Shown piece after piece: positions 14,171-62,028 of a stretch of DNA of 64,000 nt (position 1 is the stretch's first letter; every line of letters starts with the position of its first letter). Source of the DNA: Rickettsiales bacterium. GTDB taxonomy: Bacteria > Pseudomonadota > Alphaproteobacteria > Rickettsiales > JAJNBL01. The DNA is taken from the NCBI GenBank assembly GCA_021156175.1, contig JAJNBL010000003.1, forward strand, positions 49,675 through 113,674. Direction: 5' to 3'. A program made the translations under genes and the position numbers. The notes under the pieces were generated by a model. That model searched no databases. It was not told the origin of the DNA and saw only the letters and a list, made by a program, of their open reading frames with translations.

Positions 14171-14929
14171 ATGATCTTACGTTCTCTCCAAATAGTGTGT
14201 ATTTTTAGTGCCATCTCTCTTACACTCTCCGGATGCGTGACCGATGGACTGAATCCCGCGGCGTTAACGGGCCTTGCGACCGATGCCTATGGCGCGATGA
14301 GTTATTCCGATAAAGATGCAGCGAATGATGCCAAAAACTTCATGGTCGAGCTTGATAACAAAGCGCAAATCGCGCCTGTGAATAATAAATATGACGAGCG
14401 CCTCCAACGTCTTTTTGCAAAACATCGCAACGAAGATGGATTGAACCTGAATTTCAAAGTCTATGTATCAAACACCGCCAATGCCTTTGCGGCGGCCAAT
14501 GGGGATATACGTGTGTATAGCGGCCTCATGGATATGATGAGCGATGATGAGTTGTTATTTGTGATTGGGCACGAAATTGGGCATGTCGCAAAAGGTCACA
14601 GCAAACAGGCACAGAAACTGGCAAAAGGTACTTCGGCTGCGTTTAAAGGCATGGAGCTGAGCGAATATACCAAGCCAGTGGCGAGCAGCGATTGGGCAAA
14701 GCTCGGTGCGCAGGTGGTGAACCAACAATTCTCACAGCACGATGAGACGGAATCCGATGAATATGCTTTGAAGTTCATGAAGAAGCATGGTTATGATGCG
14801 AAGGCATGTGTTACTGCGCTCAATAAATTAGCGGCGCAAGGTGGAGCAAAAACAGGATTCCTCGATAAATTCCTTTCAAGCCATCCGGATCCGAAGAAGC
14901 GGGCGGAAAACCTTCAGAAGCGGATTTAG
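14171..14929 (+). CDS. M48-family zinc metallopeptidase lipoprotein
   Basis: Lipobox LTLSGC and the HEIGHVAKGH (HExxH) motif are present. Confidence 0.85.
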   Translation: MILRSLQIVCIFSAISLTLSGCVTDGLNPAALTGLATDAYGAMSYSDKDAANDAKNFMVELDNKAQIAPVNNKYDERLQRLFAKHRNEDGLNLNFKVYVSNTANAFAAANGDIRVYSGLMDMMSDDELLFVIGHEIGHVAKGHSKQAQKLAKGTSAAFKGMELSEYTKPVASSDWAKLGAQVVNQQFSQHDETESDEYALKFMKKHGYDAKACVTALNKLAAQGGAKTGFLDKFLSSHPDPKKRAENLQKRI

Positions 14930-14937
14930 TATAGAAA

Positions 14938-14976
14938 TAAAAACCTCCTCTGCTTTCAAATAGAGGAGGTTTTTTT
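14938..14976. terminator. bidirectional rho-independent terminator (M48 gene / LRR gene)
   Basis: The stem aaacctcctct / agaggaggttt has an A-run upstream and T7 downstream. Confidence 0.75.
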
Positions 14977-14979
14977 ACG

Positions 14980-59038: not shown

Positions 59039-59593
59039 TTATCGTCCTATAGTTGTATTTTTAGTTTTCTCTGATTCTGGCGTTAGTGCCATAAGAATAA
59101 CCTCTTTATACTTTTTAGGTGTTATTGGCTCTCTAAACTGAGGGGGATATTTCAAGTTTGCAAGGGTAATCCAGGGATTGGTTAGTTCTATATCGATGGG
59201 GGCCAGGGGTAAAGATTGTATTTCACTGAGAGTTTTTGGTGCTTTTCCTGCCCAGGGAGAAAAGGCGGATTTATAGGGTTCTGATGATCGCGAAGCTTCG
59301 AGGATGGAGTTCACGGGTGTCGGATGCGATTTTAGGGGAAGGCGCGTATCGAGGGGGCGAGTGTGTGTTAGGAGCATCTCATTTGTATTGGGTACAAATT
59401 TCCATATTGGATCGTGTAAATTCTGTAAATTTTTCCATTTTTTCTCATTGCCTGCAGCGTTTGGGACGTAGACTGACATAGCCAATTCGCCATTTTTCAG
59501 TGCATTGCTAGTCGCTCTTTTTCTTGGTGTAATATTTGTTTTTTCTAAGGTTTTTTGGTTTTCAGGGGGAAGTTCTTCCCTACGGCGCTTCAT
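59039..59593 (-). CDS. hypothetical protein with basic MKRRRE N-terminus (184 aa)
   Basis: ORF. The N-terminus MKRRREELPPENQKTLEKTNITPRKR parallels that of 14980..15627. Confidence 0.5.
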   Translation of the reverse strand: MKRRREELPPENQKTLEKTNITPRKRATSNALKNGELAMSVYVPNAAGNEKKWKNLQNLHDPIWKFVPNTNEMLLTHTRPLDTRLPLKSHPTPVNSILEASRSSEPYKSAFSPWAGKAPKTLSEIQSLPLAPIDIELTNPWITLANLKYPPQFREPITPKKYKEVILMALTPESEKTKNTTIGR

Positions 59594-59750
59594 AACTATC
59601 TCTTTCGGTGGGTTGCTGATTGGTTGTTTAATTAATAAATGTATATTGATCTGTCAATATATAAATATTATGCTTGCTAGGCTAAGCGGGAGATGGACTT
59701 CTATTGTTAAGCCTATTATGCTGTGTTTTTGAAACCAAAACAGTTACGCT

Positions 59751-61094
59751 ATGCCAATTTCCCTTCATAATAGCCTTTCCCGTGCAAAAGAACTTTTTAC
59801 TCCAATGGATGCAGAGCATGTCCGAATGTATGTCTGCGGACCTACCGTCTATGACCGTGCGCATATCGGCAATGCAAGGGCAGTTGTAGTGTTTGATATG
59901 CTTTACCGGCTGCTGCAGTATACCTATGCGCAAGTCACCTATGCCCGAAATATCACGGATGTGGACGATAAAATTAATGCCCGAGCCAAAGAAACGGGCA
60001 AGCCGATTTCGGAGATTACCACCGAGACCACTCGGATGTTCCATGAGGATATGGAAGCTCTTTCGTGTTTACCCCCGACCGTTGAACCGCGGGCGACCCA
60101 GCATATCCCGCAAATGATTGCGATGATTGAGCGCCTGATTGCAAGCGGTCATGCCTATGCGGCAGAGGGGCATGTGCTTTTTGCAGTTCAGAGCGATCCC
60201 AATTACGGCCATTTGGCGGGACGTACGACGGAAGAGATGATTGCAGGTGCGCGAGTGGAGATTGCTCCTTATAAGAAATATCCGGGCGATTTTGTCCTTT
60301 GGAAACCCTCTAAAGGAGATGAACCAGGATGGGAAAGCCCATGGGGAGTGGGGCGTCCGGGGTGGCATATTGAATGCTCGGCGATGAGTACCGAATATTT
60401 AGGCAATGATTTTGATATTCATGGAGGAGGGGCGGATTTGCAGTTCCCGCACCATGAAAACGAGATTGCGCAGAGCTGTTGTGCTAATCCGGGTTCGCGC
60501 TATGCGAAATATTGGGTGCATAATGGTTTCTTGACCGTCAATGGCGAGAAGATGAGCAAGTCACTTGGAAATTTCGTGACGGTTCATGAACTGTTAGCCC
60601 GTGGGATTAAAGGCGAAGTCATCCGTTATGCGCTGCTTGCGACCCATTACCGCAAACCACTGGATTTCTCGGATAAAGCGCTAGAGGATGCCAAAAAGGC
60701 GCTTGATCGTTTTTACCGGGTGATTCAGGGGAAAGAAAATGCGGAAGTGAGCGTTCCTGCTCCCTTTATAGAGGCGCTTTCGGATGATATCAACACACCT
60801 AAAGCTTTAGCGTTGCTGCATGAATATGCGCAAGGTGGGCGCGCCAAAGACCTATTGGCGGGCGGTATTATGCTTGGTTTCTTTGAGGATTCCGCTGAGA
60901 ACTGGTTTGCCGATGAAAACCAGGAGGTTAACGACGAGGAGAAGACTGAGATTGATGCTCTTGTTGCTGCTCGCGCCGAAGCGAAGCAGGCGAAGAACTG
61001 GAGCGAGGCCGATCGGATCCGCGATTTACTCGCTCAGCGTGGGATTGTTCTTGAGGATCGCCCGAGCGGGGTGACCGAGTGGCGGCGGGGGTAG
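59751..61094 (+). CDS. cysS: cysteine--tRNA ligase
   Basis: CGPTVYDRAHIGNAR (HIGH), KMSKSLGN, and the zinc ligand context HIECS are present. Confidence 0.93.
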   Translation: MPISLHNSLSRAKELFTPMDAEHVRMYVCGPTVYDRAHIGNARAVVVFDMLYRLLQYTYAQVTYARNITDVDDKINARAKETGKPISEITTETTRMFHEDMEALSCLPPTVEPRATQHIPQMIAMIERLIASGHAYAAEGHVLFAVQSDPNYGHLAGRTTEEMIAGARVEIAPYKKYPGDFVLWKPSKGDEPGWESPWGVGRPGWHIECSAMSTEYLGNDFDIHGGGADLQFPHHENEIAQSCCANPGSRYAKYWVHNGFLTVNGEKMSKSLGNFVTVHELLARGIKGEVIRYALLATHYRKPLDFSDKALEDAKKALDRFYRVIQGKENAEVSVPAPFIEALSDDINTPKALALLHEYAQGGRAKDLLAGGIMLGFFEDSAENWFADENQEVNDEEKTEIDALVAARAEAKQAKNWSEADRIRDLLAQRGIVLEDRPSGVTEWRRG

Positions 61095-62028
61095 GTTCTT
61101 TTTGTGTGCTTGCTACTAACTGATTTATCTTAGTAAACACTTCTTCTGTCTCGATTGGCTGAGTTTTGTACTGCGACGTTTGTGAGAAGGTTAGGGATTT
61201 TTCGTCATCTTTCCAACCCTGAATGAAGAAGCGTCCTTCCAGCTGTTTATCAAGGCAACGCATTTCTCCCATATCGATGTGTACTTTCTCTAGATTCAGG
61301 AAGAGTGCGTCAAATAGACTCTTGTGCTTTTCCCCTAAATAGGCCAAGAGGACAAACGGTACCGAAAAAGACGTGCAGTGATTCAGTGCATCGGCCACTT
61401 TCGTATTATTCTTTTTGGCTGCTTGAAGACACAGTACATCATTTCTATCTGCAATATGCAGATGCTTCAGTTTACCACCGAAACCTTTCTCACACAGGGC
61501 AATGATCTCATCATATTCAAGTGATACGTCAACGCGCAGTTCTTGGAGATTCGGGAAATGGGAGGCATCCGCTTGAGTAAGAAGTTTCAGTGACGGTGCT
61601 TTCTTTTCGCGGTGGTTTTTACTTACTACTATTTTGGTTTCCGCATTAGTCCATGGGATATTATGCTTATTAAAAATCTCAGCCCTGTTGACGGTCTGGC
61701 TTTTCGTGCGTTCACGCAGTGAAAGCGATACGGGAGGAAAGTCTTTCGCTTGTGCCGGAGAAAGCAATGGTTCTTTAGCACTATTGGCTGCTGGAAGCGC
61801 TAAAAACGGGTTTCGAAGGAGTTGTGTGAGGTCTGATTTGTGGAATTTAAGACCGACCAATAATCTGGGAAACAGTTCTTTATTGGTTGCTGTTGCAAGG
61901 AAAAAGGAGAAGCGGTCACGTGTGGTTGAAAGACGCTGGAAAATTTCAACCAGTATTTCCCCTGGAAGTGATAGAAGCTGATTTGAATTTTCTTCTACTA
62001 CGTCTGGCCGTCCCTTTGCCATATACAT
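60928..62028 (-). CDS. F-box-like / LRR-like protein
   Basis: LLSLPGEILVEIFQRLSTTRDRFSFFLA fits the F-box LPxEILxxIFxxL core. The last 55 codons are antisense to cysS. Confidence 0.6.
   Translation of the reverse strand: MYMAKGRPDVVEENSNQLLSLPGEILVEIFQRLSTTRDRFSFFLATATNKELFPRLLVGLKFHKSDLTQLLRNPFLALPAANSAKEPLLSPAQAKDFPPVSLSLRERTKSQTVNRAEIFNKHNIPWTNAETKIVVSKNHREKKAPSLKLLTQADASHFPNLQELRVDVSLEYDEIIALCEKGFGGKLKHLHIADRNDVLCLQAAKKNNTKVADALNHCTSFSVPFVLLAYLGEKHKSLFDALFLNLEKVHIDMGEMRCLDKQLEGRFFIQGWKDDEKSLTFSQTSQYKTQPIETEEVFTKINQLVASTQKEPTPAATRSPRSGDPQEQSHAERVNRGSDRPRSSSSPASLRREQQQEHQSQSSPRR

Follow-up and report, generated by a model that had tools for sequence, protein, structure and literature searches.

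Four genes in a 64,000-nucleotide stretch of DNA from an uncultured Rickettsiales bacterium (contig JAJNBL010000003.1 of assembly GCA_021156175.1; hereafter the window) are each followed by a single gene and then by a second copy of their own 3' end. The targets are a gamma-carbonic-anhydrase (gamma-CA)-like gene, a tRNA-Leu gene, a GNAT acetyltransferase gene and the glutamyl-tRNA ligase gene gltX, and the genes enclosed by the repeats encode, in the same order, a catalytically dead integrase-like protein, a pentapeptide-repeat protein, a leucine-rich repeat (LRR) protein and an ankyrin-repeat (ANK) protein. The repeats lie 1545, 1868, 1658 and 1523 nt apart, respectively, with exactly one gene in each unit. 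These four inserts are best read as a known kind of integration scar in very small form, lacking a working integrase, and not as a new capture route. The window belongs to a metagenome-assembled genome (MAG) with the NCBI name "Rickettsiales bacterium" and matches two contigs (Ga0456370_0000017 and Ga0456370_0000031) of the Joint Genome Institute (JGI) metagenome 3300042904, which it joins in a tandem-repeat region at about 39.3-39.4 kb. Gene identities were taken from Pfam, NCBIfam and PHROG scans, and RNAs from ARAGORN and Rfam.

An earlier reading of the bare sequence (the original prediction) had proposed that single genes with eukaryote-type domains were repeatedly delivered to the 3' ends of conserved plus-strand genes, with the gene tail acting as the attachment or homology site. 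Such delivery is supported for the GNAT-LRR and gltX-ANK pairs and for the gamma-CA-like gene, each of which has the claimed duplicated tail, and found no support at three further genes that it invoked, M48, radA and cysS, where no duplication exists. When the tails of 63 coding sequences (CDS) were compared with the 6 kb downstream of each, only gltX (E = 1e-35), the gamma-CA-like gene (5e-24) and GNAT (5e-14) were returned, and tandem arrays aside these pairs are the only direct repeats of at least 40 nt in the window. In 68 other alphaproteobacterial gltX loci, the gltX tail was never repeated downstream, no further duplicated-tail units occur in ~19 kb of extra flank, and sensitive local alignment found no third, older tail copies beyond the displaced ones.

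The differences between the two copies are almost entirely silent. Across the three protein-gene repeat pairs, 20 of the 21 mismatches fall at codon position 3, a bias with p = 4e-9 if unconstrained and 1e-5 even if half of the changes are expected at that position. Duplication of the tail at insertion, followed by drift of the dead copy, is therefore excluded, and the two copies are the coding versions of the same tail from two lineages, as would be expected if an element had carried in a surrogate 3' end. Each pair also holds an uninterrupted block of identity, of 47 nt in gltX, 35 nt in the gamma-CA-like gene and 28 nt in GNAT, and this block, central or on the left, is avoided by the mismatches (p = 0.037, 0.017 and 0.11, respectively, by permutation). 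The pattern of an identical core within diverged arms is consistent over the three loci, modest at each, and as expected of a crossover within a stretch of identity. Third-position mismatches in combination with the identical core thus suggest that the incoming DNA brought its own coding tail and recombined within the core. The displaced copies have undergone almost no non-silent change, so the insertions are recent relative to the divergence of donor and host tails.

The assemblies support the reality of these arrangements. Each repeat locus lies within a single JGI contig, and the ends of Logan unitigs match the core boundaries predicted for k = 31 (57043 and 58578 at gltX; 4957 at gamma-CA, contig L165). 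Only occupied sites are present in the assemblies (two JGI samples and two Logan runs), where unitig ends are explained by k-mer size. A 1536-nt Logan contig (L078) was considered as an excised circle and rejected, since it is a unitig (k = 31) whose two ends are set by the 47-nt core of gltX.

In the gltX unit, the proximal and distal tails (the latter at 58539-58638) are 91% identical over 100 nt, eight of the nine mismatches are at codon position 3, and all 33 amino acids are the same (33/33). The gene stays intact, with its last ~43 nt probably supplied by the insert, and the displaced copy is probably the original host tail. In a relative (L079, whose gltX is 76% identical) the tail matches the 3' half of the displaced copy at five variable sites and the proximal copy at two, which weakly supports the displaced copy as the original. 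This relative holds the closest gltX among 5.8 billion proteins, and a scan of genome contigs gave nothing above 54%. Its gltX and cysS lie 200 nt apart on the same strand, compared with 2.6 kb in the window; ANK, ORF145 and ORF184, which fill the interval, were therefore inserted. The same ANK insertion is present in a second strain, 99.75% identical to the window. Outside its repeats the ANK cargo is an orphan among the 5.8 billion proteins, with generic ankyrin matches only and no second context or donor, and its GC content is 0.44, compared with about 0.50 for core genes. Constraint from the antisense ORF145 was considered as a reason for the preservation of the displaced gltX tail and rejected; aligned by hand, gltX position 3 falls on ORF145 position 2, so the observed changes are not silent for ORF145. 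The 200-nt spacer between gltX and cysS in the relative (L079, 7557-7757) is filled by a long imperfect palindrome (GTCATCCCAGCGAAGGCTGGGATCCAGC ... GCTGGATTCCAGCCTTCGCTGGAATGAC), and the 66-aa open reading frame (ORF) called there is more likely a palindromic repeat element.

At GNAT, the repeats (the distal one at 38894-38936) are 93% identical over 43 nt, with three of three mismatches at third positions, and a block of unknown genes lies beyond the scar. The LRR cargo contains a tandem array of at least seven copies of an 84-nt (28-aa) unit at 37662-38465, mutually 73-89% identical. A second gene just outside the window (L164, 15989-17638) has a longer 84-nt array, and these arrays point to recent repeat expansion. 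The collections searched hold no relative closer than L079, and no sister state of the GNAT or gamma-CA site was obtained. A metagenome scan with argG, which adjoins GNAT in the window, gave only distant argG loci; at three of these, a GNAT gene of 26-33% identity is oriented divergently from argG.

The gamma-CA-like gene, which lies outside the range covered by the original prediction, does have its tail duplicated around an integrase-fold gene as claimed. The two copies (4908-4995 and 6453-6539) are 89% identical, and all nine mismatches of a 79-nt block are at codon position 3. Activity of the enclosed integrase cannot be taken for granted. The Pfam match of the protein does not reach the cut-off and spans only profile positions 3-111 of 172. 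Its AlphaFold model (pLDDT 76) is matched by Foldseek to lambda Int, XerH, Tn1549 Int, Cre and P4-type arm-binding domains; the arm-binding, core-binding and catalytic folds of tyrosine recombinases are all present, and the R-K-H-x-x-R-H/W-Y residues are not. Compared with a bona fide plasmid recombinase, the protein and its six known homologues lack the conserved Arg-I, carry YNLI (window) or VDLV (homologues) in place of HxxR, and end before the segment with His/Trp and the C-terminal Tyr. Searches with the protein gave no phage matches and only plasmid integrases at 22-25% identity. The MrpR/YopR proteins of SPbeta resemble it in having a recombinase fold without catalytic competence, and appear at ranks 36 and 38 of the fold matches; these matches are weak (E 0.1-0.2), and the window protein keeps a P4-type arm-binding domain.

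This unit also holds the only mobile-element relics among the four, namely the integrase-like gene and a conserved palindromic block (GATTTC.CAATTTT.AAAATCTGT ... AC.TGGCCAGG), the ANK, LRR and pentapeptide units having none. The block always follows the integrase-like gene, both in the window (5033-6275) and in three further contigs (L081, 8118-9726; L083, 10001-11672; L170, 985-2456). In L081 and L083 a gene for a 60-aa protein is conserved beside the integrase-like gene, and its absence from the window unit looks like decay. The L083 homologue sits in a relaxase/MobC region, and the L170 unit is about 1.5 kb long, placed between two housekeeping genes and 53 nt after galE; no repeats were found around the homologous genes in L081, L083 or L170. 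The gamma-CA unit is probably decayed mobile-element DNA, and the seven-protein recombinase-fold family may act as a regulator or targeting protein of mobile elements.

The tRNA-Leu unit, which the original prediction had not listed, has the same format, with one gene only and no integrase. The repeat is an exact 14-mer, before which an ACGTGCC also matches tRNA-Leu across an 11-nt gap, a score reached by none of 300 shuffles. The contrast drawn in the original prediction between single-gene delivery and the usual picture of islands at tRNAs therefore does not hold, as the same one-gene, integrase-less arrangement occurs at a tRNA gene in the window. An Rfam scan of the window found two tRNAs and nothing further. 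Feature coordinates are collected in Table 1.

Table 1. Features of the four repeat-flanked units, of the convergent pairs and of other genes discussed in the text (window positions).
Feature	Position	Strand	Evidence and remarks
Gamma-CA-like hexapeptide gene, target gene 1	4478..5008	+	NCBIfam E 6.6e-52, below equivalog cut-off; Pfam Hexapep
Proximal gamma-CA-like repeat	4908-4995	+	Identical core 4928-4962
Integrase-fold gene, 351 aa	5033..6088	+	GC 0.35; phrog_1 integrase E 1.5e-12
Non-coding part of unit 1	6089..6452	.	Palindromic block ~6200-6275; hairpin abuts distal repeat
Displaced gamma-CA tail	6453..6562	+	Own in-frame ending ...EYRLAQKNTTI*
tRNA-Leu(UAA), target 4	12088..12175	+	ARAGORN, Rfam
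Pentapeptide-repeat cargo gene	12333..13880	-	Pfam Pentapeptide_3; in 1.87-kb stretch, GC 0.31-0.37
Distal copy of tRNA-Leu 3' end, GGCCGTGGGCACCA	14030..14043	+	Exact 14-mer of 12162-12175
GNAT acetyltransferase, target gene 2	36854..37288	+	Pfam Acetyltransf_1
Proximal GNAT tail repeat	37236-37278	+	Identical core 37236-37263
LRR cargo gene, 515 aa, 8 LRR_6 repeats	37296..38843	-	Pfam LRR_6 E 1.8e-55; stop 7 nt from GNAT stop
Displaced GNAT tail	38894..38948	+	Own in-frame ending ...HFAKAIN*, compared with ...HFAKQL* in working gene
gltX, target gene 3	55778..57115	+	Pfam tRNA-synt_1c, Anticodon_2; named glutamyl-tRNA ligase in Rickettsiales MAG
Proximal gltX tail repeat, attL-like	57016..57115	+	Core 57026-57072; end is the TAG stop
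ANK cargo gene, 449 aa	57123..58472	-	Pfam Ank, Ank_2; stop 7 nt from gltX stop
66-nt spacer	58473..58538	-	Promoter-like TTGAAC-N18-AATAAT; ribosome-binding site AGAGGAGG before ANK ATG
Displaced gltX tail copy, attR-like	58539..58638	+	
ORF145	58544-58981	-	Last 95 nt antisense to displaced gltX tail; no family matches
ORF184	59039-59593	-	No family matches
M48 peptidase	14171-14929	+	Followed by hairpin terminator at ~14937-14976
Weak LRR ORF, M48 partner	14980-15627	-	Sub-threshold LRR matches
radA	17619-18992	+	
92-aa ORF touching radA	18994-19272	-	No domain
LRR_6 ORF	19205-19783	-	Overlaps the 92-aa ORF in another frame
cysS	59751-61094	+	
F-box-like ORF, 366 aa	60928-62028	-	Pfam F-box-like E=0.041 and N-terminal LLSLPGEILVEIFQRL motif by eye; 167-nt overlap with cysS
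ComEC homologue	27379..29631	+	Pfam Competence, DUF4131
argG	35543-36763		Not an integrase

Two coding versions of one tail, an identical core and an old tail displaced beyond the insert together make up the anatomy of site-specific integration into the 3' end of a gene. On balance, we favor the reading that all four loci are scars of such integration, the recombinases having been lost and the inserts having decayed to one useful gene. Each incoming element would have carried an attachment (att) site mimicking the 3' end of its target, and crossover would have taken place inside the short identical core of 14-47 nt. The element's surrogate tail would now complete the working gene, and the host's original tail would have been displaced beyond the insert. 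The present units, each 1.5-1.9 kb long with a single gene and without a working recombinase, would then be remnants resembling cis-mobilizable elements (CIMEs) in a deletion-prone intracellular genome in which the useful gene was kept. We infer both that the joints were made by recombinases and that the units decayed from something larger, which may have been an integrative and conjugative element (ICE) or an integrative and mobilizable element (IME).

Several observations weigh against this reading. No catalytically competent recombinase is encoded in any unit or elsewhere in the ~83 kb examined. The att regions of the three protein genes share no motif above shuffles (a GCGAGGG 7-mer common to the gltX and GNAT cores was considered and is not significant), so the sites would call for three or four different specificities. 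Both the ANK unit and the LRR unit are clean, with 7 nt on one side of the cargo, 50-66 nt on the other and no gene relics, and random decay would need to have made such neat deletions twice. The units have no room for the arm-type sites used by P4- or lambda-type integrases, and no empty site, circle or donor element was found in the assemblies or in protein and IMG/VR searches; the degenerate-codon patterns of the three tails, used to search IMG/VR for autonomous carriers, gave no matches. Finally, the occurrence of four one-gene units of similar size hints that one gene may be the native unit.

This last point leads to an explanation that we regard as unlikely, the first of the two mechanisms suggested in the original prediction, in which the units are intact, non-autonomous single-gene cassettes, each with its cargo, promoter and surrogate tail as address, moved in trans by a recombinase encoded elsewhere. 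The presence of exactly one gene in four of four units at spacings of 1.52-1.87 kb agrees with this, as do the lack of relic DNA in the ANK and LRR units, the promoter-like site in the ANK spacer, and the similar size (~1.5 kb) and intergenic position of the homologous integrase-like unit in L170; more speculatively, a catalytically dead fold with conserved DNA-binding domains, as modeled, could serve as a targeting partner. Against it, no trans-acting recombinase was seen in the 83 kb, and the units have neither a shared end motif nor terminal inverted repeats nor palindromes of the attC kind. The 5.8 billion proteins include no relative of the ANK cargo in a different context, and the assemblies show occupied sites only. 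A wider form of the same idea, that the 1.5-1.9-kb units make up a native cassette system combining a host-interaction gene with a surrogate 3' end as address, and served by a shared trans-acting enzyme (possibly guided by the dead integrase-like proteins) or by RecA through tail homology, is likewise tentative and in our view rather improbable.

Homology could also have driven capture, the second mechanism suggested in the original prediction, if DNA of a related bacterium with the cargo beside the orthologous gene entered via ComEC or otherwise and was integrated by RecA, either through a single Campbell-type crossover of a circle or through homology-facilitated illegitimate recombination. 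The surrogate tails do resemble the orthologous tails of a close relative, with synonymous differences only (33/33 amino acids in gltX), the 28-47-nt identical cores are near what is generally taken as the minimal pairing length of RecA, and different targets would need no different enzymes, which fits the absence of a shared motif. A ComEC homologue is present, with no link to the inserts shown, and the population does exchange DNA by homologous recombination, as evidenced by 19 of 25 single-nucleotide polymorphisms (SNPs) lying within 855 nt at the cysS tail. However, the 14-nt tRNA-Leu repeat is too short for RecA and corresponds to the acceptor-stem/CCA segment used by tyrosine integrases, the homologies are in general much shorter than RecA would favor, and the integrase-family DNA in the gamma-CA unit is foreign in composition (GC 0.35). 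Transforming DNA is moreover generally known to enter single-stranded and to form no circles, and homology-facilitated illegitimate recombination, which usually deletes recipient DNA and does not duplicate it, would leave no identical core between diverged arms. We consider this route unlikely. That no insertion took place, the arrangement being due to chance, to an assembly artefact or to local duplication and drift, is very improbable overall and is excluded for the four repeat-flanked units by E-values of 1e-14 to 1e-35, the containment of each locus in a single JGI contig with unitig ends at the predicted core boundaries, the presence of the ANK insertion in a second strain, and a third-position-only divergence that excludes post-duplication drift. 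The joining of two JGI contigs at 39.3-39.4 kb within the window is a point in its favor, and it is adequate for the M48-LRR, radA-LRR and cysS-F-box-like pairs, which have no repeats and a tight spacing that occurs genome-wide.

Integration scars of this general design have been described before, which contradicts the claim of an uncharacterised route. IMEs, ICEs and genomic islands integrate at the 3' ends of guaA, trmE, rpsI, rplL and rpmG with a direct repeat that includes the gene end; decay removes the integration and transfer genes of such elements, attL and attR persist, and the resulting integrase-less, att-flanked derivatives are the CIMEs; by accretion, new elements land beside the gene and push older material outward (PMC5704250). 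Like these elements, the present units lie between direct repeats, one of them containing the 3' end of the target (gltX, GNAT, the gamma-CA-like gene and tRNA-Leu), and like CIMEs they retain attL/attR-like repeats and have no integration or transfer genes. ORF145 and ORF184 beyond the gltX scar, and the block of unknown genes beyond the GNAT scar, recall the accretion of IMEs. As in insertions of the icd or IME type, the target remains intact through a substitute 3' end, and the displaced gamma-CA and GNAT tails keep their own stops. The units differ from IMEs and islands as defined in that the tRNA-Leu, GNAT and gltX units encode no tyrosine or serine recombinase and the gamma-CA unit only a catalytically dead fold, and from IMEs, ICEs and CIMEs alike in measuring 1.5-1.9 kb with one gene each, two of them without any relic sequence. 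Neither gltX, GNAT nor the gamma-CA-like gene is among the listed targets of those elements, and the host here is an uncultured Rickettsiales.

Comparable features are found in other systems. Phage 21 and e14 reportedly integrate in icd of E. coli, in work attributed to Hill et al. 1989 and Campbell et al. 1992. They are said to insert inside the icd 3' end and to supply a substitute end that leaves the protein nearly unchanged, with differences that are mainly silent. Mainly silent differences between substitute and displaced tails are what we observe here; phage 21 and e14 are prophage-sized with a working integrase, whereas our units hold one gene of host-interaction type and no working integrase. 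Integron cassettes, too, are mobile units of one gene each and depend on a recombinase that they do not themselves encode; unlike them, the window has no attC-like palindrome, attI or IntI, and only 7 nt lie beyond the cargo stop. Integron cassettes also do not duplicate the tail of a host gene, and the ANK unit seems to come with a promoter-like site of its own. The tycheposon islands of Prochlorococcus contain degenerate elements, partial tRNAs, fragmented integrases and cargo (10.1101/2020.12.28.424599), and share with our units a streamlined genome without the usual gene-transfer machinery and repeated integration at the 3' part of genes. Tycheposons use tRNAs only, with a specific tyrosine recombinase and replication genes; by contrast, three of the four targets here are protein genes and no hallmark genes are present.

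The convergent architecture from which the original prediction started is real, and its meaning proved different. Five convergent junctions exist with the claimed spacers of 50 (M48), 1 (radA), 7 (GNAT), 7 (gltX) and -167 nt (cysS) in the ORF list and the sequences, and both the GNAT and gltX junctions read TAG-N7-CTA (TAGGGAAGAACTA and TAGGCCCCCCCTA). The shared terminator at the M48 junction was also confirmed by eye, where CCTCCTCT-N10-AGAGGAGG forms a bidirectional hairpin accompanied by runs of A and T; it was not picked up by a terminator scan. The five pairs are not one phenomenon, since three of them have no tail duplication and their tight spacing is ordinary compaction. For M48, radA and cysS, no tail copy was found within 6 kb downstream, nor by sensitive local alignment against shuffles, and these pairs are ordinary compaction of convergent genes. 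In the window, the median spacer of the 15 convergent junctions is 5 nt, compared with 177 nt for divergent and 73 nt for co-directional ones, and the convergent set includes core-core pairs at 2, 2, 5 and 15 nt and overlaps of 4, 17 and 32 nt. Tight stop-to-stop packing is thus a general habit of the genome, not special to accessory genes, and arises because promoter-free convergent spacers are squeezed out. Core genes lie mostly on the plus strand and, in a tally from the gene list, about three quarters of the orphan and repeat-protein genes on the minus strand, so an insert after a plus-strand gene tends to look docked against it. The eukaryote-type character attributed to the minus-strand partners stands for the LRR genes at 37296-38843 and 19205-19783 and for ANK, all of which are strong matches; it is sub-cut-off for the LRR at 14980-15627 and limited to a Pfam E of 0.041 for the F-box, and the ORF that actually touches radA has no LRR.

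Two accessory ORFs have low-complexity tails that run antisense into the ends of aminoacyl-tRNA synthetase genes, at 58544-58638 (95 nt) and 60928-61094 (167 nt). These correspond to the last ~31 aa of ORF145 and the last ~55 aa of the F-box-like ORF and look like run-on extensions following the loss of an original stop codon, which also fits compaction by deletion. Comparison of the window with the 99.75%-identical strain (L077) places the cluster of 19 SNPs at 60350-61205, a stretch that takes in the last third of cysS together with the end of the F-box-like ORF that overlaps it, with none in the preceding 4.8 kb. This cluster looks like either a tract imported by recombination or a hypervariable linker at 60902-60925.

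The acquisition and shuffling of eukaryote-like effector genes with ANK, LRR and F-box domains by obligate intracellular bacteria is poorly understood because such bacteria usually have no obvious transfer machinery. Here two eukaryote-like genes, ANK and LRR, have been caught with clean scars that preserve both the donor and the recipient version of a tail. A comparison of translated gene tails would allow such scars to be sought across whole genomes. The scars also mark the events as recent and predict the junctions of empty sites and circles. At gltX, the empty-site junction is predicted as ...AAAGCCCTTACAGCGAGGG...GATTGG joined to TCGTGAGCGCGCTGTGAGACGG...TAGCCTGCTGATG, and the circle junction as ...ATTACTCTTAGCCCTTACCGCGAGGG...GATTGG joined to GCGTGAACGTGCTGTGAGGAG...TAGGCCCCCCCTATTC. 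If the units are decayed, they are a clear example of reductive genomes stripping islands to a single useful gene; if the one-gene format is native, they would form a new class of mobile unit, minimal and recombinase-less, and a native cassette system, if true, would provide amoeba-associated Rickettsiales with a dedicated means of exchanging effector genes.

Several further features of the window were noted. The two JGI contigs both terminate within 39287-39425, where they overlap by ~139 nt, so the continuity of the window here depends on a different assembly; at 38963-40190, a ~385-nt repeat underlies three small paralogous ORFs arranged in tandem. GC skew is positive across the whole window. 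A gene for an HU-type DNA-binding protein (2692-3201) encodes a lysine/alanine-rich, histone-H1-like N-terminal extension (weak Pfam HC2 match), specified by short tandem repeats at 2762-2850. An intergenic repeat of ~65 nt is present in three copies (4346-4409, 24903-24973 and 25271-25327) at ~79-89% identity, one of them inverted, and two of these copies flank a small ORF at 24974-25261. In the second strain (L077, 13582-13709), a ~117-nt insertion with inverted-repeat ends lies in the tight convergent junction between a pilin-like gene and glmU; it is absent from the window strain (site 53841-53851), has no copy in the window, and looks like a miniature inverted-repeat element whose presence varies within the population.

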